In this document: positions 49,158 to 64,000 of the stretch, in pieces
Layout: each line of letters starts with the position of its first letter
Numbering within the stretch: the first letter of the stretch is position 1
Assembly (NCBI GenBank): GCA_001593935.1
Contig: LUCE01000002.1
Span: 1,290-65,289 of the forward strand
DNA: 64,000 nt
Direction of reading: 5' to 3'
Source: Candidatus Bathyarchaeota archaeon B26-2
GTDB lineage: Archaea; Thermoproteota; Bathyarchaeia; Bathyarchaeales; B26-1
Translations under genes and position numbers: made by a program
Notes under the pieces: generated by a model
Told to the model about the DNA's origin: nothing
What the model saw: only the letters and a program-made list of their open reading frames with translations
Database searches by the model: none

Positions 49158-51089
49158 TTGAGAGAGGTGGTCGTTGGAATAATCGGCTGTGGAACGGTTG
49201 CGGAGTCTATACATCTCCCTGCTCTGAAGATGATCTCTGAGATTGAGATTGGAGCTCTAGCGGACATAGATGAGAGGAGAGCCTCACACCTCCTGGAAAA
49301 GTTCCACTTAGAGGACGCCTCGGTCCACAGAGATTACCGGGATCTCCTGAAGAACCCGGAGATCGAGGCGGTCTGGGTTCTAACCCCTCCGAGGTTCCAC
49401 GCCGAGATCTCTCTCGAGGCCCTGAAGAACGGGAAGCACGTCCTCGTCGAGAAGCCTTTGGCCACTAGCCTTGAGGAAGCCGAGGTCATTAGGGAGACCC
49501 TGAGGAAACATGGCGCCGGGGGATGTGGAGACCGACCCAAGGGACCGGTTCTCATGCCCGCTCACAACTTCGCCTTCACCCCATGCTTCGAAAGGGCGCT
49601 CGATCTTCTAGAAGGAGACGCTTTAGGTGACATTAAGGAGATTAGGGGACGAACGGTCTCGAACCTCGCCTTCTACAAGGCTAGGACAGACTTCAGGCTT
49701 CAAGCTAAGGGCGGAGTGATCGAGGACCAGATGCCCCACATCCTATACTTGGCTAGGAGGGTTGGAGGCCCGTTTCGGAGGGTTCTCTCGCTTGAGCCGT
49801 ATGGTGAGGGGAGACCCCTGATTGAGGACGCTCGGGTGAGGGCTGAGCTCGGAGATGGGGTGAAGGCGGACCTCTCAGCTGCTTGGTCAGGGTTTATTCC
49901 AACCTTTAAGCTCACGGTCGTTGGAGATGAAGGTCGGCTAGAGATGGATCTCCTCAGGAGACCCTACAACCTCACGGTCTTTAGAGGTGACGAACGTGAG
50001 GAGATTAAGTTGGGTCGGGGCTTCCTCCAGTATCTAGACGTCTTGAGGGGTAGACATCCGTCTTATCTTAGGGAGGACCTCCACTTCGTCGAGGTTGTGA
50101 GGGGTGAGGCTGAGCAGAGGATAACCGTAGACGAAGGCGTCGAGGTTGTGAGGGTTCTGGACGAGATTATGGAGGTCCTTGAGAGCCGACCTAAACCCTC
50201 AGTTGGGATGGAGAGAGTTGCTCTGGTCCGTGTTGAGGACGGGGACGTGAAGAGGGCGATTCGCGAGTCCATAGCCCTCCTCGGAGGCCTAAACTTTAAG
50301 AGTGGGTCTCACGTAATCGTCAAGCCTAACATCTGTTTCTGGAAGAACACCGAGAACATGGTTATAACGGACCCGAGGATACTTAGGGCTGTTCTGGAGA
50401 TTCTGGATGAGAGAACAGACCAGATCACCGTCGTCGAGTCTGATAACAACTCCGGCCCAGCCGAGAAGCGGGCTGAGAAGACCGGGGTTCTAGAGGTGGT
50501 CGAGGAGTGTGGAGCCGAGTTCCTGAACCTAAGCCATGACGAGTACGTTGAACACGAGGTCGCCGGCTTCAAGATAAGGCTTCCAAAGACCGTTCTGGAC
50601 GCGGACTACCTCGTTAACCTCCCGAAGATGAAGACCTGTAATGTAGCCAACACGTTGATCACGGTAGCGATGAAGAATATGTTCGGGGTCATAGCCGACA
50701 AGAAGAAGGTCCGACTCCACAAGAGGCTGGTTGATGTTCTCCTATACGTGAATAGGACTATCCGCCAAGACCTCATCATAGTCGACGGCGTAACGGCCAT
50801 GGAGGGACTCGGCCCAATATGGGGAACCCCGGTCCAGCTCAACCTCATAGTCGCCGGAAGAAACCCAGCGACCGTTGATACGCTCTGCTGCCACATCATG
50901 GGGATAAATCCCTACTCGGTTGAGGTTCTCTGGAGAGCCTACAAATCCGGCATGAGCGAGATAAATATAGAGCGTATAGAGGTCCTCGGCGAGAAGGTTG
51001 GAGATGTGAAGAGAAGATTCTCATACCCAATCTTCCTAAAGAAGAACATCACAGGGGCAATAAGGACGGCTCTAAAGACGTACCTATAA
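49158..51089 (+). CDS. fusion protein: Gfo/Idh/MocA oxidoreductase (N) + DUF362 (C)
   Basis: N-terminal half has GIIGCGTVAESIH and LVEKPLA. The C-terminal ~290 aa have VIVKPNICF...ITDPRIL...LPKMKTCNVA...MKNMFG...IVDGVTAMEGLGP, the DUF362 pattern. Confidence 0.75.
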   Translation: MREVVVGIIGCGTVAESIHLPALKMISEIEIGALADIDERRASHLLEKFHLEDASVHRDYRDLLKNPEIEAVWVLTPPRFHAEISLEALKNGKHVLVEKPLATSLEEAEVIRETLRKHGAGGCGDRPKGPVLMPAHNFAFTPCFERALDLLEGDALGDIKEIRGRTVSNLAFYKARTDFRLQAKGGVIEDQMPHILYLARRVGGPFRRVLSLEPYGEGRPLIEDARVRAELGDGVKADLSAAWSGFIPTFKLTVVGDEGRLEMDLLRRPYNLTVFRGDEREEIKLGRGFLQYLDVLRGRHPSYLREDLHFVEVVRGEAEQRITVDEGVEVVRVLDEIMEVLESRPKPSVGMERVALVRVEDGDVKRAIRESIALLGGLNFKSGSHVIVKPNICFWKNTENMVITDPRILRAVLEILDERTDQITVVESDNNSGPAEKRAEKTGVLEVVEECGAEFLNLSHDEYVEHEVAGFKIRLPKTVLDADYLVNLPKMKTCNVANTLITVAMKNMFGVIADKKKVRLHKRLVDVLLYVNRTIRQDLIIVDGVTAMEGLGPIWGTPVQLNLIVAGRNPATVDTLCCHIMGINPYSVEVLWRAYKSGMSEINIERIEVLGEKVGDVKRRFSYPIFLKKNITGAIRTALKTYL

Positions 51090-51571: not shown

Positions 51572-53578
51572 TTAAACTGAACGACCGGTTAGGTTCTCCT
51601 CCAAGAGGTTGAGTATTTCTCCGGCCAGTTCGGCTTTCTTCCCATCGAAGTCTCGAACTCTACCTCTCTGGTCTATTAGGTACGCCTTATGGCATTCGCC
51701 TCTTATCTCTGATAGGTCGTTGGCGACGATTATTGCGGCTTTGACTCTCTCAAGTTCGTCTTGAGCTCTCCTTATGAGCTCCTCTCTGGAGACCTTATAC
51801 TCAAGTTTGAAGCCGACTATCCTCACGTCCGGATATCTCCTAGAGACCTCGCCTATAACCTTGACCGTCGGGATGAGGTTAACGGTCCACTCGGCTCCGG
51901 ACTTAACCTTCTCTGCTTCGTATGTGGCGGGCTTGAAGTCGAGTATGGCGGCTGAGAAGACCGCAACTTCGTATCTTCCGGTCTCGAGCTCAGTCAGGGC
52001 CGCCTTCAGCATCTCCTCAACCGTGTAGACCTTCACGACCGGTATATACTCAGGGAATCTCACAGTCCCAGGCCCATATATGACCTTGACCTCGCAGCCT
52101 CTCTGGAACGCCTCCTTCGCTAGCCAGTACCCGATCTTACCCGAAGCCTTGTTGGATACGTACCTAACCGGGTCTATGTCGTAGCGTGTCGGGCCGGTGA
52201 GGATGAGGATTCCTCTACCCTTCAAGATGCTTGTTGAGAGGCTTCTGATGACGTAATCTACCGCCTTCTCCACAGAGGCGACCTTGGCGGCCCCCTCACT
52301 TATCCTCGGCTCAACTAAGGTTACGCCGAGCCTCTTAAGCCTCTTTAATGCCTCCCTAAAAGCCGCGTTCATATAGAGCCTCAAGTTCATGGCTGGAGCT
52401 ACAACGAGACGAGTCGGACTGGTCGAAGCGCAGAGCGTCGTAACAGCATTATCAGCTACACCCCGGGCAACTTTACAAACCGTATTCAACGTCGCAGGAT
52501 AGACCAAGACAAGGTCGTAATCCACCAAGTGTTCAGCCGCACCTGTGAGCCCCAAGACGACCGGCCTCCCAGTCGCCCACTCCATAACCTTCGGGCTTAC
52601 GCCATACTCAACGGCGGCCGAGGTCATGTAACATTGTACCTCAGCGCCGTGTCTCCTGAGCCATCTAGCCAGCTTGGGAGCTTCAATCGTTGCGACACTC
52701 CCAGTTAGGCAGAGTGCCACCCTCTTACCGGAGAGCTTCATGCTCTCCTTGGAGAGTTCGATAACTGGAGCAGCGGCGTCCACAGTGGTGTAGGCGGCGT
52801 CTCCACCACCTTTAGGGAGTATGTGACTGTAATCTAGGAACCGGCCTTCACAGGGGTTTCCCCGGCAGTAGAGGATTCTAGAGTCTCCCAGATTCTTGGC
52901 TACAGCCATGATAGTTGAGGAAGACATGTACCAACCGACCTCCCCATGGTAGCAGATCGAACCCCTACCACGCTCCTCTCCATGGTCGGAGGCCACGCGT
53001 CTCAACTCCTCGAGAACTCCTTTCAGCCCTTTAGGTTCAATCTGGGAGGCGAGCTCTACCGCTCGCTTTCTTCTCATCTCCACGTACTTCATGAGGTCTT
53101 CGGGAACCCGCTCAGTTCTGACCCATTCTTTAACAGTCAGGTTTGTGAAGATGTGTACGCCGGGGTTTAGAGGCGTAATCTCTACTCTCTCATCTTTGAG
53201 TATATGGAACGCCTCCCTCGAATCGGCTAGGAGAAAGTTTCCCCTCCTGTACCCTTTGGTGAGCTCCATCTCCATGTAATCTGCAGCCTCAGAAGCCTTA
53301 GAGAAGTGGGTTAAGACATCCATCAGGAGGAGGCCCCTACTCCTATAGGCTTTTAAGGGTCCATCTGTATGCTGGTCGGTAGCAGCGGCGAAGAGACCTA
53401 CTTTGTTAAAGCCTACCCACGTTCCCTTGGAGGATGCGTCCACCGGATGATAAGCCTCGAACCTACCTTTAGATACTCTAGGCGGCTCCTCGAATGACCC
53501 TGTTCTGGCGTAGCGGTTATGCATCGCCACAACGTGGAAGCCTTCTAGAAGCCGATACAACATTATCAGAGTGCACAT
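51572..53578 (-). CDS. coaBC: NRDE/TANGO2-like domain fused to phosphopantothenoylcysteine decarboxylase/phosphopantothenate-cysteine ligase (CoaBC)
   Basis: Residues 1 to ~255 start MC and contain KGTWVGFNKVGLFAAATD and RGNFLLADS (NRDE-like). Residues ~280-450 have KRVALCLTGSVA, PATLNT and APAMN (CoaC). Residues ~455-668 have GPTRYDIDPVRYVSNKASGK and SAAILDF (CoaB). Confidence 0.8.
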   Translation of the reverse strand: MCTLIMLYRLLEGFHVVAMHNRYARTGSFEEPPRVSKGRFEAYHPVDASSKGTWVGFNKVGLFAAATDQHTDGPLKAYRSRGLLLMDVLTHFSKASEAADYMEMELTKGYRRGNFLLADSREAFHILKDERVEITPLNPGVHIFTNLTVKEWVRTERVPEDLMKYVEMRRKRAVELASQIEPKGLKGVLEELRRVASDHGEERGRGSICYHGEVGWYMSSSTIMAVAKNLGDSRILYCRGNPCEGRFLDYSHILPKGGGDAAYTTVDAAAPVIELSKESMKLSGKRVALCLTGSVATIEAPKLARWLRRHGAEVQCYMTSAAVEYGVSPKVMEWATGRPVVLGLTGAAEHLVDYDLVLVYPATLNTVCKVARGVADNAVTTLCASTSPTRLVVAPAMNLRLYMNAAFREALKRLKRLGVTLVEPRISEGAAKVASVEKAVDYVIRSLSTSILKGRGILILTGPTRYDIDPVRYVSNKASGKIGYWLAKEAFQRGCEVKVIYGPGTVRFPEYIPVVKVYTVEEMLKAALTELETGRYEVAVFSAAILDFKPATYEAEKVKSGAEWTVNLIPTVKVIGEVSRRYPDVRIVGFKLEYKVSREELIRRAQDELERVKAAIIVANDLSEIRGECHKAYLIDQRGRVRDFDGKKAELAGEILNLLEENLTGRSV

Positions 53579-58622: not shown

Positions 58623-59666
58623 TCAACCAAGCGAGGCCAGATCCAAGAATATCTGGGAGCAGCAGAGAGAGGAGAAGGAGACCTCCAGCCCTAGTCTCTC
58701 AGCCTCCTCTATGGCCGCGTCACTCGGGAACGCTATGGCGTTGATGCCGGCCCTAACGGCTAGTACATCCGTCGCGTTTCTGTGTTCCCCCTTCGGCCTT
58801 GCACATCCAAGCGCCATAGGGACATCCGGCATCATGAACCTGGCTTCAGTTAAGACTTTGGCGACGACGTTTGGCGGGGGAGGACTAACAGACTCCATCA
58901 ATGTGCCCTTAATCGGAAAGAATACTATCAATATTAGGGCTGAGGGCCGATATCTCGAGATCATCCTCAGAGCTTCTAGTTCACCCCTGAGTTCCCCGTA
59001 ATGGAGCCCTACCAAGACGTGTGGAACAAACTGGATTCCAGACTCCTTGAGAGCCCTCAAGGACCGCTCGAAGTCTCGTGTGGTCGCGTTGAGCCTATAG
59101 ACGTCCTTGACAGTCTCGTCTGAGCCGATTATATCGATCAGGACAGCGTCCACGCCAGCGGCCTTGAGCATCTCAGCGGTCTCCAGATCGATGAGGCCTG
59201 TATGGACAACGACGGTCAGTCCAAATCTCTCCTTTACCTTGGAGATCGTTTCGATGAAGGGTTTGATCGGGACTTTGCCGTCGATCGTGCATCCACCGCT
59301 TATCAAGCACCCGACTCCGCCTCTCCGCTTTATCTTTGAACAGACTTCTAGGAGCCTCTCAGGAGACTGGGCTGGGATCATCGTTCGCAGCAGTCTCCCA
59401 CCACAGTGTCTACAGTTGAGGGCGCACCTAACCCCTGTTATGGAGATCGATGGAAAGATTCCACTCGGCCGACGGATAAGTTTACTCTCGTGGTGAATAA
59501 AGCTCGGGAGATAGAACCAGATATGTCTCCCGAAGTTTCTCCAGCTGATACTCCCAGCCCTCGAGATGGCATCCTCTAGACCCTCCAACTTCATGAGGCT
59601 CTTCTCTGCAGAGTAGGTGCCTCCCTCCGGCATCTTCATGTCCAGGGCTCCTCTAGGGCTTCTCAA
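58623..59666 (-). CDS. radical SAM protein, BioB-like (possible LipS-type)
   Basis: CALNCRHC (CX3CX2C) preceded by ISITG. LISGG segment and C-terminal Cys residues (LGCARP, LCCSQ). Confidence 0.8.
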   Translation of the reverse strand: MRSPRGALDMKMPEGGTYSAEKSLMKLEGLEDAISRAGSISWRNFGRHIWFYLPSFIHHESKLIRRPSGIFPSISITGVRCALNCRHCGGRLLRTMIPAQSPERLLEVCSKIKRRGGVGCLISGGCTIDGKVPIKPFIETISKVKERFGLTVVVHTGLIDLETAEMLKAAGVDAVLIDIIGSDETVKDVYRLNATTRDFERSLRALKESGIQFVPHVLVGLHYGELRGELEALRMISRYRPSALILIVFFPIKGTLMESVSPPPPNVVAKVLTEARFMMPDVPMALGCARPKGEHRNATDVLAVRAGINAIAFPSDAAIEEAERLGLEVSFSSLCCSQIFLDLASLG

Positions 59667-59741
59667 CGGTCACTTAAGGTAGAGACCCAAGACCCTCGTA
59701 ATTTACCTCTTCCATACATAATTCTTTTTTCTCTTATAATC

Positions 59742-59756
59742 CCATCTTTAAGATGG
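59742..59756. promoter_or_regulatory. perfect palindrome CCATCTT-T-AAGATGG next to a TATA-like box
   Basis: Read directly. CTTATAAT at 59733-59740 lies immediately upstream, and the gene start is at 59796. Confidence 0.4.
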
Positions 59757-59795
59757 TGAGTCTCTAACCTAGAGCCGTTCCTCGCCCGCGTCTGG

Positions 59796-61466
59796 GTGAC
59801 GGTGACCCGTTTAAGACTTGAGGCTCCCATTACTCTGTGGCGGTTTAAGAAGTTGAACGCGGAGGCCCTGACATTAGAGGATTATAGAACTGTCTGCAGG
59901 GTTATGGGTGAGAGTTGTAGGAGAAAACTTGGAGAAGCCTTCCAGTCTATATACAGCAAGCATAAGGTGTTAGACCTGACCCCGGGCTACAGCGACCTCG
60001 ATTTGAGGGCGGTCTGTAGCGGAAAGACTGTCGAAGAATGGTCAAAGATAGGTTTCGCGATCTCCCAAGTTTACCTCGAACTCCTACGTAACAACCCGAG
60101 ATACAGCAGAATCCTAGAGCATCCTCCCGGCTTCATAATCTCAACCGAAGAGGTACCCAACTACATACGATACCACCCAGCTGTAGCTGAGTGGGACCTA
60201 ATGTTCGGCTTCCCCCTCATAGATGCGGATTCGTCCATACCCTTCGACCAAGCCAAGAGAGCCATCCTGAAAAGTTTCATGGCCTTATACGGAGTCTACA
60301 GACCGGAGCTCGACCCTCCCGTAAACATCGACAAAGGACTACTGGGAACCTATCACATCTACGGCAGAATCATGCACCATCTGGCTCCAGCCTTGAAGGC
60401 GGGTATGAGCCTAATACTCGGACGCCAACTGAAAAGCAAGGTGGAGGCCTTTAATGAGGCTCTCCAACACTTCCCGGATAACTCCCTCTTGAAGGATATC
60501 CAAACGATAATGGGGCGAGCATATAGGGTAAGCGCTCCCCCACACAGCCGTTGCCTGCGAGAACTCGACCTAAAGGTCATCGAGTTTCTAAGTTCCATCT
60601 TCGAGGCGATCCGTGAGAGGCACCCTTTAGAGAGTTGGCTAGAGAATACTCGTCCCGCGAGGCTTTGCCAAGAGAAGCCTAACGGCGAGCCGGTTAAGAC
60701 TATAGAGCGTTTAGAGGAGGCATTACGTGAATGGGTTGAACATTCCAGAATGGAGGAAAACCTGCGGACGGCTATCCTCTATAAGAGCCCAATAACTAAC
60801 GCACGCCATCTGATCCTAGTCTTCCGTGAAGGAAGCCTACGGGGAATAACTCGCGTGAGAGGCATCCCTAAAAGACTTGTCTCAAAGGTCAGATACGCCC
60901 TTAAAGGAGGGCGAGAAACCAATCTCTCCTCAATACTGATCTCGACAGAGGGAGAGTTCCTCTATAGGTATCTGTTGGCTTACCCCACCGATCTATACTC
61001 GATCTTTTACAGCGGGGAGACGATCTTCGGAGAGGACTTTATGGAGTGGGTTCCTCACCCTAGAAAGGAGATGCTCATGGACGAGGCTCTGGGAAGGATG
61101 TGCATCCTTACGGGAGTCTGTAGGTCTAGGGTCGGCATCCTCGCGTACTTGAGGGACGCCCCACCCTTCTTCGCTACGTCCTTCCTCAAGAGGAGGTGCT
61201 TTGAGGAGATAAATGAGATCATGGTCTCGATGCTGGTATCACACGGATTGACGGCACAAGGATGCGTCCCCATGACCTTAAAGGATGGACTCAACATCCT
61301 TAAGGACGGTCTGGCGGGGCGTCGTGAGTTGAGAGCCTTGGATGATCTCTACTCTCTGACCTTAAACCCTAAGAGAGTAACCAACGGCGCCATAAACTTG
61401 GCTATCGAACTCTTACCGGTTCTAAACCGGGTTGCTGAGAGGGTTTACTCGGAGGTCTTTTCTTGA
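59796..61466 (+). CDS. hypothetical 556-aa protein with nucleotidyltransferase-like motif
   Basis: LTPGYSDLDLRAV resembles the Pol-beta NTase G-S...D-x-D strand. The second half has a degenerate copy (VFREGSLRG...NLSSILIS). I recognise no other family. Confidence 0.5.
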   Translation: MTVTRLRLEAPITLWRFKKLNAEALTLEDYRTVCRVMGESCRRKLGEAFQSIYSKHKVLDLTPGYSDLDLRAVCSGKTVEEWSKIGFAISQVYLELLRNNPRYSRILEHPPGFIISTEEVPNYIRYHPAVAEWDLMFGFPLIDADSSIPFDQAKRAILKSFMALYGVYRPELDPPVNIDKGLLGTYHIYGRIMHHLAPALKAGMSLILGRQLKSKVEAFNEALQHFPDNSLLKDIQTIMGRAYRVSAPPHSRCLRELDLKVIEFLSSIFEAIRERHPLESWLENTRPARLCQEKPNGEPVKTIERLEEALREWVEHSRMEENLRTAILYKSPITNARHLILVFREGSLRGITRVRGIPKRLVSKVRYALKGGRETNLSSILISTEGEFLYRYLLAYPTDLYSIFYSGETIFGEDFMEWVPHPRKEMLMDEALGRMCILTGVCRSRVGILAYLRDAPPFFATSFLKRRCFEEINEIMVSMLVSHGLTAQGCVPMTLKDGLNILKDGLAGRRELRALDDLYSLTLNPKRVTNGAINLAIELLPVLNRVAERVYSEVFS

Positions 61467-61502
61467 GGAACTCCAAAAAAGTTTATAGTTCTCTGAGCTA
61501 GG

Positions 61503-62549
61503 ATGTTCTCTGGGTTAGAGGATCGGATGAGGAAGACTGAGAAGCCGGAGGGTGAGACCTTCTCGCACGGTATGGTCCGCGTCTCTTTAGGTTCTGCCAT
61601 CCTGCTCGGTCTGATGAGGGGCCGGCTTGACGCCGAGCCTACAACCATCTATCTGCTCACTTATAGACGTGGAAGATGCACGGCCAACTGTGGCTTCTGT
61701 CCTCAAGCGAGGGGCTGCACGGGGCGAGCTGACATGCTCTCTAGGGTTGTTTGGCCACCGTTCCCAGCGGCCAATGTTATAGAACGCATAGGAAAAGCCT
61801 ACATAGACGGAAGGGTCAAAAGGGTCTGCATCCAAGCTCTAAACCATCCGGATATACTCGAGGAGATAATCTCCCTTGTAAGAATGATAAGGCTTACTTC
61901 ATCGGTTCCGATCTCGGTCTCCTGTCAACCTCTACAGAAGGAGGAGATGGTCCGCTTACGTGAGACGGGGGTTAACCGGGTCAGCATAGCCCTAGACGCC
62001 TCAACCCGAGACATCTTCAACGAGGTTAAGGGCACCTCTGCTGGAGGCCCATACACTTGGGATGGACATATGAGGGCGCTTAAGGATGCAGTTGAGGTCT
62101 TTGGAGAGGGCTCCGTCACAACCCATCTAATAGTCGGCTTAGGTGAGTCTGAGGAGGAGGCTGTTCGAACGATACAGTTATGCCACGATATGGGGGTCTA
62201 TCCCGCCCTCTTCGCTTTCACACCTATACCCGGAACCAGAATGGCGAAACGTCCAAGCCCACCTCTCGAAAAGTATAGGAGAATCCAGGTCGCCCAGTAT
62301 CTTATAACCCACAACTTGGCACGCTACGCGGATATGACCTTTGAGGAAGGCCGCCTCAGAGATTTCGGGGTTCCAAGGAACCTTCTATTGAAGATCGTGG
62401 AGTCCGGTAGGCCCTTCATGACGACGGGATGCCCGGGATGCAACAGGCCGTACTACAATGAGAGGCCGGGCGGACCCCTCTACAACTATCCGAGGAAGCC
62501 TAAGCTCGAGGAGGTAACCGAGATCAAGAGGCAGCTCGGTCTTCAGTAG
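61503..62549 (+). CDS. radical SAM protein, BioB/LipA-like (possible LipS-type)
   Basis: CTANCGFCPQ (CX3CX2C), RVCIQALN and C-terminal CPGCNRPYYNE. 36 nt downstream of the 556-aa gene. Confidence 0.8.
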   Translation: MFSGLEDRMRKTEKPEGETFSHGMVRVSLGSAILLGLMRGRLDAEPTTIYLLTYRRGRCTANCGFCPQARGCTGRADMLSRVVWPPFPAANVIERIGKAYIDGRVKRVCIQALNHPDILEEIISLVRMIRLTSSVPISVSCQPLQKEEMVRLRETGVNRVSIALDASTRDIFNEVKGTSAGGPYTWDGHMRALKDAVEVFGEGSVTTHLIVGLGESEEEAVRTIQLCHDMGVYPALFAFTPIPGTRMAKRPSPPLEKYRRIQVAQYLITHNLARYADMTFEEGRLRDFGVPRNLLLKIVESGRPFMTTGCPGCNRPYYNERPGGPLYNYPRKPKLEEVTEIKRQLGLQ

Positions 62550-62707: not shown

Positions 62708-63460
62708 TTGAAGCGAACCGAAAGTCCCCAGAAGAGGCTCTTAGGACCCCTCGACTTGGCGGCCTCAGCCGTCTTCTCAGCGTTCGTGTGTGTGGCAACC
62801 ATAATCTTCACCGTATATGTCCCACAGACGAGGGGGTTCTTCAACATAGGTGAGACGATGATCTACGTAACGGCTCTCCTCTTCGGGCCCATAGTCGGCG
62901 GTATAGCCGGTGGGTTCGGCTCGATGCTGGCCGACGTAATCTTGGGCTACATGGAGTTCGCGCCCGCAACCCTCGTCATAAAGATGTGCGAGGGCGCTGT
63001 TGTCGGCTTCCTAGGCAAGAAGAATCCGAAGAAAGAATCGAAGGATTACTGGAGAGCTACAACCGCCATTCTGGGGATAGTTATGGGGCTTCTACTCGCA
63101 GTCATAGGCTCAACATACTACAGCGGAGAAGTCGAGATATACTTCGGAACATCAGCTGAGCCCACCTTTACGCCGTGGATTCCCGCGGAGGTTTGGTACC
63201 TGATCGGGGGGCTCGCCGCCTTCTCGATAGTACTCGCCGGGATCAAGCTAGAACCCGAACTGGGATGGACGATCCTCTCGATAACTGTTGGAGGCCTAAT
63301 CATGGTCACGGGATACTTCATCTACGAGTTGTTCTTGGTGGGTCCCGGTGCCTTCGCCGAGATTCCCGTCAACATAGGGCAGATGTCAGTCGGTTTGATG
63401 GTCTCGATGCCCGTCGTGAGGGCTGTATGGAGATACCTTCCATCCCTAAGAGGGCGATGA
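62708..63460 (+). CDS. ECF-transporter S-component-like membrane protein (solitary)
   Basis: FNIGETMIYVTALLFGPIVGGIAGGFGSMLADVILGY...APATLVIKMCEGAVVGFL matches the ECF S-component pattern. TTG start is preceded by GGAGG. Confidence 0.6.
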   Translation: MKRTESPQKRLLGPLDLAASAVFSAFVCVATIIFTVYVPQTRGFFNIGETMIYVTALLFGPIVGGIAGGFGSMLADVILGYMEFAPATLVIKMCEGAVVGFLGKKNPKKESKDYWRATTAILGIVMGLLLAVIGSTYYSGEVEIYFGTSAEPTFTPWIPAEVWYLIGGLAAFSIVLAGIKLEPELGWTILSITVGGLIMVTGYFIYELFLVGPGAFAEIPVNIGQMSVGLMVSMPVVRAVWRYLPSLRGR

Positions 63461-63489: not shown

Positions 63490-63597
63490 TCAGACATTAC
63501 GTGTTTCTCTTCGGAGGTGATACCCTCAAGAAGGAACTAATTTATGTAAGCGGACGTCTAGAACTCTGGAGATACTACGAACTGGAAGGGCGGGAAC

Positions 63598-64000
63598 TTG
63601 ACTTGGAGAATAGACGTTAGGAGGCGGCCTTCACTTCCGCTCTCGCTGGCGGTTCTCTTCGTTGCCGCCCTCATCTTTATGGGTGTATGGAATCTCATCC
63701 AATCTACGGACGAGGCTTCAGAGTTCACTTTGACCGATATAGAGTCTAAGCGACTTTAGGGGAAAAGTTGTTCTCTTAGACTTCATGGCTACTTGGTGTG
63801 GCCCTTGCAGGGAATCCATGCCCGTGCTTAAAGTTCTCTGGGAGAAGTATGAGGGGGAGATCGTCATCATAACGATAGCGGTTGACCCCGCCCATGACAC
63901 CGTCGAGAAGATGCAGGACTGGGTTCGCGTCCACAACGCCACATGGATACACGCCAGAGATACCGCTAACCCTCCGGTAGGACAACTTTATAAGGTCACA
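63598..64000 (+). pseudogene. TlpA/ResA-like membrane-anchored thioredoxin, frameshifted; 3' end cut by window
   Basis: Frame 1 encodes a signal anchor plus EFTLTDIESKRL and stops at TAG 63757-63759. Frame 2 is open from 63743 and encodes SLSDFRGKVVLLDFMATWCGPCRESMPVL... Confidence 0.7.

Follow-up and report, generated by a model that had tools for sequence, protein, structure and literature searches.

The two-protein archaeal lipoyl synthase LipS1/LipS2 is an already known system that has been characterized biochemically, and purified LipS1 and LipS2 alone make the lipoyl product in vitro (PMC9585515). Synteny of lipS1 and lipS2 and their presence in Thermoproteota have been described, and none of the known accessory genes (lplA/B, lipM, lipT, lipX and lipY) encodes a nucleotidyltransferase (NTase) (PMC10332631). 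Here we analyse a stretch of 64,000 nucleotides (the window; positions 1,290 to 65,289 of contig LUCE01000002.1) from Candidatus Bathyarchaeota archaeon B26-2, in which two genes for radical S-adenosylmethionine (SAM) proteins bracket a gene for an uncharacterized 556-aa protein, X556. A reading of the bare sequence (the original prediction) had described the pair as BioB-like, suggested that it might be LipS1/LipS2, and proposed X556 as an unreported lipoylation partner or as part of a three-gene cofactor or thiolation module. We put at roughly 80% the probability that the locus instead holds the known LipS1/LipS2 lipoyl synthase together with a lipoylation-unrelated protein of aminoglycoside nucleotidyltransferase (ANT) fold, placed in a variable slot of one Bathyarchaeia lineage.

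The LipS1/LipS2 pair

Against NCBIfam, the first radical SAM protein scores 252.6 bits with the LipS1 equivalog NF053742 (cutoff 230), and the second scores 346.3 bits with the LipS2 equivalog NF053743 (cutoff 270), matching profile positions 1–292 of 292. For both proteins, the models for BioB, PylB, HydE and HmdB score far under their own cutoffs; BioB reaches 54–56 bits across the two against a cutoff of 225 and, at 55.7 bits, is the next best model for LipS1. Only biotin synthases and PylB are detectable by sequence among solved structures, with weak E-values (the nearest for both proteins is biotin synthase 8vdw, at E 6e-8 and 6e-5), which explains the earlier view of the pair as BioB-like.

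Mutagenesis of the Thermococcus kodakarensis enzymes defined C27/31/34, C230, C276 and C277 as cluster ligands of LipS1, with H159 implicated, and C39/43/46, C85, C276 and C279 as those of LipS2 (Neti et al., PMC9585515). The window proteins match this pattern at corresponding spacings. LipS1 carries a CX3CX2C motif (CALNCRHC, from residue 81), a single Cys, a C-terminal CC pair and a His (C81/C85/C88, C288, C335-C336 and H216), and LipS2 carries a CX3CX2C motif (CTANCGFC, from residue 59), a single Cys and a CxxC (C59/C63/C66, C109 and C310xxC313). For LipS1, equivalence was judged by spacing and pattern rather than by direct alignment to the T. kodakarensis sequence, relative to which the Bathyarchaeia protein has an N-terminal extension of ~50 aa. 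In LipS1, C81/C85/C88, C288, C335 and H216 are invariant across 57 of 57 Bathyarchaeia orthologues and C336 is kept in 56 of 57, and the LipS2 ligand cysteines are invariant in 81 of 81 Bathyarchaeia sequences.

Because both equivalog cutoffs are passed and every experimentally defined cluster ligand is kept, the LipS1/LipS2 proposal is correct: judged by profile and ligand pattern, the two radical SAM proteins are LipS1 and LipS2 of the two-protein archaeal lipoyl synthase. This clarifies the annotation of Bathyarchaeia ‘biotin synthase-like’ radical SAM pairs, which are confirmed as LipS1/LipS2. Each subunit is predicted to hold two [4Fe-4S] clusters, one that cleaves SAM and an auxiliary one that is sacrificed; acting on the octanoyl-lysine of a lipoyl carrier domain, LipS2 would thiolate C8 and LipS1 would then thiolate C6. 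Radical SAM sulfur-insertion chemistry is common to this pair and BioB, whereas the auxiliary-cluster ligands are of LipS type and not of BioB type.

The closest known systems are the T. kodakarensis enzymes (TK2109/TK2248) and the lipS1-slpl(AB)-lipT-lipS2 clusters of bacterial sulfur oxidizers, and the synteny of lipS1 and lipS2 in the window is usual for this kind of system. The window differs from known LipS1/LipS2 loci in that the two genes are divergent instead of co-directional and that no gene for a ligase, LipM, LipT or a carrier protein accompanies them within its 64 kb. Pfam scanning (50 of 58 open reading frames (ORFs) of at least 90 aa) and a motif scan found no LplA, LipB, GcvH or LipA in the window, and equally no E2 or other lipoyl-domain acceptor and no octanoyl or lipoyl ligase or transferase. 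The lipS1 and lipS2 genes also contain a 25-nt inverted repeat, 80% complementary (59611-59635 and 61540-61564), because both N-termini encode PEG(G/E)T(Y/F)S outside the conserved cores; it could reflect chance, gene conversion or a common short motif.

The interval between lipS1 and lipS2

Genomic matches to LipS2 yielded 81 loci (L001-L081), one from the same species as the window (L001) and 80 others. The 80 best genomic matches to the window protein are nearly all from metagenome-assembled genomes of Bathyarchaeia, at 52–67% identity. lipS1 lies near lipS2 in 60 of 79 Bathyarchaeia loci, nearly always in divergent orientation and across a gap of ~130 bp to 4.8 kb (1.8 kb in the window); in about a dozen the two genes are immediately back to back, 130–290 bp apart. 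Where the interval is occupied elsewhere, it holds genes for deoxyhypusine synthase, HDAC-like, HTH_45, C_GCAxxG, CAAX protease, BNR or URO-D proteins, which have no relation to one another or to lipoylation. Besides the lipS1–lipS2 pairing, even the commonest neighbours reach no more than roughly one third of the loci, and genes for a ligase, LipM, LipT or a carrier protein are not among the neighbours.

Relatives of X556 occur in 0 of the 80 other Bathyarchaeia LipS2 loci, both by tblastn (E<=1e-3) and by a family profile hidden Markov model run against all six-frame ORFs (E<=10). Conversely, LipS1/LipS2 are found in 0 of the 84 loci with a recovered X556-family gene, including 0 of the 38 loci of at least 8 kb. 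These two counts reject a conserved three-gene module: the order seen here is an accident of one lineage’s gene order, and the envisaged lipoylation partner or thiolation module finds no support in conserved linkage. In Bathyarchaeia, only the pairing of lipS1 with lipS2 is conserved, not the genes in between, and the space between the two divergent promoters would serve as a variable slot that different lineages fill with unrelated genes. The result guards against inferring a functional module from the gene order of one lineage.

Immediately before lipS2, the 36-nt spacer contains a BRE/TATA-like element (Table 1), a candidate lipS2 promoter whose TTTATA is kept in L001 despite two nearby spacer substitutions. 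Because of this element, the co-regulation of all three genes that the original prediction had read from their spacing is doubtful. Sequence features suggest rather that lipS2 has retained a promoter of its own and that X556 entered the space between two divergent promoters as a separate unit. X556, too, probably has its own promoter.

These observations also bear on a narrower form of partnership, in which X556 would be a lineage-specific accessory of LipS1/LipS2 with an adenylylating, scaffold or cluster-repair role, recruited, possibly via its own unique ~130-aa insertion, as an AMPylase of, or a scaffold for, LipS2/LipS1 or the carrier protein, and maybe co-transcribed with lipS2. The position of X556 between the subunit genes, upstream of lipS2 on the same strand, fits this idea, as do the uniqueness of the insertion, the retention of the arrangement in three contigs at 99–100% identity (window, L001 and L092) and an X556 ORF intact in both strains. 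However, the three contigs come from one species and amount to a single observation, the linkage counts above are zero in both directions, other lineages carry unrelated housekeeping genes in the slot, and a candidate promoter stands directly before lipS2. Moreover, LipS1 and LipS2 alone suffice in vitro (PMC9585515) and no NTase figures among the known accessory genes (PMC10332631). We consider an accessory role very improbable.

Three observations concern the interval and its flanking pair in other lineages. In the closest relatives, it is occupied by genes co-directional with lipS1 for deoxyhypusine synthase (PF01916, ~16 loci) and an HDAC-like protein (PF00850, ~14 loci), as in L003, L005, L009, L010, L013, L015, L016 and others. 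An HTH_45 winged-helix protein of ~110–117 aa lies between lipS1 and lipS2, again co-directional with lipS1, in ~21 loci (including L040, L045, L050-L052, L056, L059, L060, L063 and L067), and in these lineages it is a candidate for local regulation of the lipoyl synthase genes. One contig labelled Candidatus Krumholzibacteriaceae bacterium (L066; DATKLC010000028.1) carries a divergent lipS1/lipS2 pair of Bathyarchaeia type, at 55% identity to the window proteins, and may be mis-binned or reflect horizontal transfer.

Family, fold and genomic context of X556

X556 has no Pfam or NCBIfam match, and word-indexed homology searches with X556 alone or with a 40-sequence profile returned only a near-identical metagenome copy. 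Exhaustive phmmer searching of 1.84 billion representative proteins recovered 82 relatives, the best at 30% identity. Most are 400–430 aa long, and the alignment covers X556 residues ~25–275 and the C-terminal region. The named members are all ‘hypothetical protein’ and come from Armatimonadota and Hydrogenedentota; the family is sparse, unannotated and apparently mostly bacterial. The family domain has no Pfam or NCBIfam match in any of 40 members (E<=0.01 or 0.1), and phmmer and profile searches against Protein Data Bank (PDB) sequences with X556 gave nothing meaningful and no ANT. The sole member of the 40 to match any such model is P0023, in which an N-terminal GFO/IDH/MocA oxidoreductase is fused to the X556-family domain.

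The Pol-beta NTase-like strand that the original prediction had noted in X556, PGYSDLDLRAV (residues 63–73), is upheld by family conservation. In the 40-sequence alignment, S66, D67, D69, R71, H109 and W133 are invariant, and D60, R105, E108, P111, G112, E119, N177, H194, P198, G214, K215 and R443 are nearly so; X556 keeps all of them, and its core motif reads S66-D67-x-D69-x-R71 followed by R105/E108/H109. A supposed degenerate second copy of the NTase strand (FREGSLRG...NLSSILIS) fared differently. It lies at residues ~312–440, a segment with zero occupancy in the 39 aligned relatives, with no BLASTP similarity to the N-terminal domain of X556 and no Pfam match, and an internal NTase duplication is thus rejected. 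This insertion of ~130 aa accounts for the length of X556 (556 aa against ~425 aa in the family).

A full-length AlphaFold2 model is confident at residues 23–285 and 430–556; the insertion is mostly helical, with a predicted local distance difference test (pLDDT) score below 50 for residues 285–385 and ~62–77 for 385–430. Foldseek matches to the full-length model were marginal (kanamycin NTase, E 0.03) because the low-confidence insertion diluted the signal, and trimming to residues 22–290 resolved this. The trimmed model, built with 52 family sequences, has a pLDDT of 92.2 and a predicted template-modelling (pTM) score of 0.88. It matches 14 PDB entries at E<=1e-3 (1e-4 to 8e-4), all of them aminoglycoside NTases (AadA/ANT(3'')(9), ANT(4') and AAD(9)), with probability 1.00, template-modelling (TM) scores of 0.38–0.52 and 13–14% identity over ~285–300 columns that span both the alpha/beta and the helical domains. 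The next matches are ANT-3,9, the AMPylase DrrA, LinB and the minimal NTase MntA.

With the characterized ANTs (5lpa, 4cs6, 6xxq, 6nmk and 1kny), X556 shares an N-terminal NTase domain followed by a helical bundle, at E 1e-4 over ~290 columns, and an SDxD metal-binding motif placed, like that of Pol-beta NTases, where strand 2 begins; E108 lies just before strand 3. In the model, D67/D69 would thus form the Pol-beta NTase metal pair, and we infer from its position that E108 supplies the third carboxylate, so that the three could serve together as metal ligands. The family differs from ANTs in having an extra C-terminal helical region of ~150 aa, to which X556 adds its insertion, in a genomic context of sugar and amino-sugar metabolism rather than resistance, and in the replacement of G[GS] by x-K-W. 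Because the canonical G[GS] is replaced, we file X556, on its modelled structure, as having an ANT-like fold outside every named ANT family. None of the 40 members matches a sequence profile of ANT(3'')/AadA, ANT(4')/KNTase, ANT(6), ANT(9) or LinB. The possibility of an aminoglycoside NTase-type protein, which the original prediction had raised, is therefore right as to structure and wrong as to membership of a named resistance family.

That X556 is an antibiotic-inactivating resistance NTase in the strict sense would accord with its best structural matches, which are AadA ANT(3'')(9), ANT(4'), AAD(9) and ANT-3,9 over both domains, and with the invariance of SDxD. Yet the ANT models of Pfam and NCBIfam match none of the 40 members, a profile search of PDB sequences finds no ANT, structural matches share only 13–14% identity, and the 400–430 aa family proteins are longer than ANTs (~250–260 aa) and lack the G[GS] motif. 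Their operons, moreover, resemble sugar uptake and catabolism (ROK, ABC importer, CE4, GFO and DegT) and not resistance cassettes. A resistance function in this sense appears quite improbable.

We examined 89 family loci (10 from exact-protein look-ups and 79 from a metagenome scan with a 10-sequence alignment) and grouped their neighbours by de novo clustering. A DegT/DnrJ/EryC1/StrS aminotransferase is present in 46 loci, directly beside the family gene in 33 and no more than three genes away in 43 of 87; a GFO/IDH/MocA oxidoreductase is present in 44, a CE4 polysaccharide-deacetylase-like protein in 23, a 384-aa protein of unknown function in 16 and a ROK regulator in 15, and sugar ABC transporter genes recur nearby. 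Of the 38 loci that span 8 kb or more, 32 have GFO or DegT no farther than 5 kb from the family gene; as noted, none has LipS1/LipS2. From these proportions we infer, at the level of the family, a place in amino-sugar or aminocyclitol-type metabolism. This context agrees with a fold whose characterized members nucleotidylylate aminoglycoside hydroxyls. The most likely activity of X556 would be an Mg-dependent transfer, with an NTP as donor of the nucleotidyl group (AMP) and a hydroxyl on an amino-sugar/aminocyclitol-type small molecule as acceptor. X556 itself is a divergent archaeal offshoot, with an insertion, of a parent family whose conserved partners are sugar-modifying enzymes.

The commonest neighbours of the family have counterparts in described pathways. 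GFO/IDH/MocA and DegT enzymes work as pairs of kanosamine/aminocyclitol type, such as NtdC/NtdA and RifL/RifK, which interconvert sugar hydroxyl, keto and amino groups; no ANT-like NTase is known from those pathways. Unlike them, the X556-family clusters also encode a ROK regulator, a CE4-like deacetylase and an ABC importer, a combination that suggests catabolism. In bacteria these genes recur as an operon of ROK regulator, ANT-like gene, CE4-like, GFO/IDH/MocA, DegT, 384-aa protein and sugar ABC transporter (L088-L090, L087, L091, L093-L095 and ~40 further loci), and a literature search found no description of an ANT-like/DegT/MocA/ROK cluster. More plausibly than a lipoylation factor, the parent family of X556 may be an undescribed NTase step in a widespread bacterial DegT/GFO/CE4/ROK amino-sugar pathway. 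As an ANT fold that no Pfam or NCBIfam model covers, the family is of modest independent interest, and it is a reasonable target for a new small-molecule nucleotidylylation step in amino-sugar/aminocyclitol metabolism.

X556 might also be a decaying, non-functional remnant of a horizontally acquired bacterial gene, with the insertion as junk. It is a singleton in archaea whose nearest relative, at 30% identity, is from Armatimonadota; the usual partner genes are absent beside it; and, of the changes between the window and L001 copies, 5 are synonymous and 5 nonsynonymous, so that constraint shows less clearly than in LipS1 (7:1). However, all 556 codons remain in one open frame in both strains, none of the invariant or nearly invariant residues of the family has been lost, both conserved regions are confidently modelled and the GC content is in line with that of the surrounding genome. 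A crude dN/dS of ~0.3 suggests constraint, although the substitutions are too few to be decisive. No convincing insertion scars, terminal repeats or compositional anomaly were found around X556. Decay is, on balance, unlikely.

Several points weigh against reading the locus as a lipoyl synthase with an unrelated ANT-fold protein in its slot. X556 is wedged between lipS1 and lipS2, on the same strand as lipS2 and 36 nt upstream of it; read-through may co-transcribe the two, and the promoter assignment is by consensus resemblance only. The ~130-aa insertion is modelled at low to moderate confidence. The hG[GS] motif, canonically 9–13 residues upstream of DxD in Pol-beta NTases, is not conserved: Y53-S54-K55 stands at the expected site, where the family has K55-W56 as its consensus and conserves no Gly. 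With fold matches at 13–14% identity and TM ~0.46–0.52, the chemistry of X556 could differ from that of ANTs. Finally, no DegT, CE4-like or 384-aa partner was found in the window and no GFO/IDH/MocA gene adjoins X556, so that it has none of the neighbours usual for its family; the two GFO/IDH/MocA genes in the window are 10 and 54 kb away. P0002, the closest relative by score, and P0003, the next, likewise lack a DegT/GFO context and have arginine-biosynthesis and HIT hydrolase genes as neighbours. Since the window copy, P0002 and P0003 all lack the usual partners, the substrate assignment is one for the family and is weak for X556 itself.

In the P0003 lineage (L083 2482-4379 and L084 3117-5014), the HIT-family hydrolase gene and the beginning of the family gene share 34 nt, which suggests a coupled pair for nucleotidyl transfer and hydrolysis.

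Locus layout and other genes of the window

The coordinates of the locus are collected in Table 1. The ORF coordinates, the spacings (129 bp between lipS1 and X556, 36 nt between X556 and lipS2, and 158 nt between lipS2 and the ECF S-component gene) and both CX3CX2C motifs agree with the original prediction, as does the succession of an ECF S-component-like gene and a thioredoxin downstream.

Table 1. Features of the lipS1–X556–lipS2 locus (window positions)
Feature	Position	Strand	Description
lipS1	58623..59666	(-)	347 aa; radical SAM, PF04055 match; possible true start ATG 59639
Divergent intergenic region lipS1/X556	59667..59795		129 bp; AT-rich, TATA-like boxes
TATA-like box AAAAAAGAATTAT	~59717-59729	(-)	Within the 129-bp region; putative promoter element
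TATA-like box CTTATAA	59733-59739		Within the 129-bp region; putative promoter element
X556	59796..61466	(+)	556 aa; ANT-like Pol-beta-superfamily NTase-fold protein of an uncharacterized family
X556 conserved core, residues 22-290	59859..60665	(+)	Alpha/beta NTase domain, then helical bundle
X556 lineage-specific insertion, residues ~312-440	60729..61115	(+)	Absent from relatives
X556 C-terminal helical region, residues 441-556	61116..61466	(+)	Family-shared; R443 nearly invariant; pLDDT mostly 85-98
BRE/TATA-like element CCAAAAAAG-TTTATA	61473..61487	(+)	In the 36-nt spacer; candidate lipS2 promoter
lipS2	61503..62549	(+)	348 aa; radical SAM; possible true start ATG 61527
ECF-transporter S-component gene	62708..63460	(+)	PF07155, 2.4e-29

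The start codons of lipS1, X556 and lipS2 are uncertain. An independent gene call on L001 places the start of X556 19 codons later and that of LipS1 9 codons later. For lipS2, a GAGGA at 61518-61522 lies 4 nt before a second in-frame ATG (61527), and in most relatives LipS2 starts ~27 nt before the conserved core, nearer to ATG 61527 than to position 61503.

The same gene order as in the window is found in L001, a metagenome contig that is 99% identical; a third contig, L092, is 100% identical to the window across the stretch it covers. Because all three are from one species, they count as a single observation. Upstream, the locus is bordered by pyrB and pyrI. Downstream, the ECF S-component gene has a match only in L001 among L001-L081 (tblastn), so its linkage to lipS2 is not conserved. 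Next, at the window edge, comes a thioredoxin-fold gene encoding a WCGPC motif (63560-64000, plus strand; PF00085, 2e-11), which is frameshifted in the window by a 14-nt deletion at ~63742 and intact in L001 (...TDIDGKRFSLSDFRVKVV...); the frameshift reflects either a pseudogene specific to this strain or a fault in the assembly.

The other genes of the window suit a heterotrophic archaeon of Bathyarchaeia and include CdvA, NucS, CGI-121, ABCE1-like, Trm5, glycoside hydrolases and sugar oxidoreductases. Two encode unusual fusions. A 668-aa protein (51572-53578, minus strand) joins an N-terminal TANGO2 domain (PF05742) to CoaBC (Flavoprotein and DFP domains), which ties TANGO2 to coenzyme A biosynthesis and may bear on the debated function of human TANGO2. 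A 643-aa protein (49158-51089, plus strand) combines a GFO/IDH/MocA oxidoreductase with DUF362.

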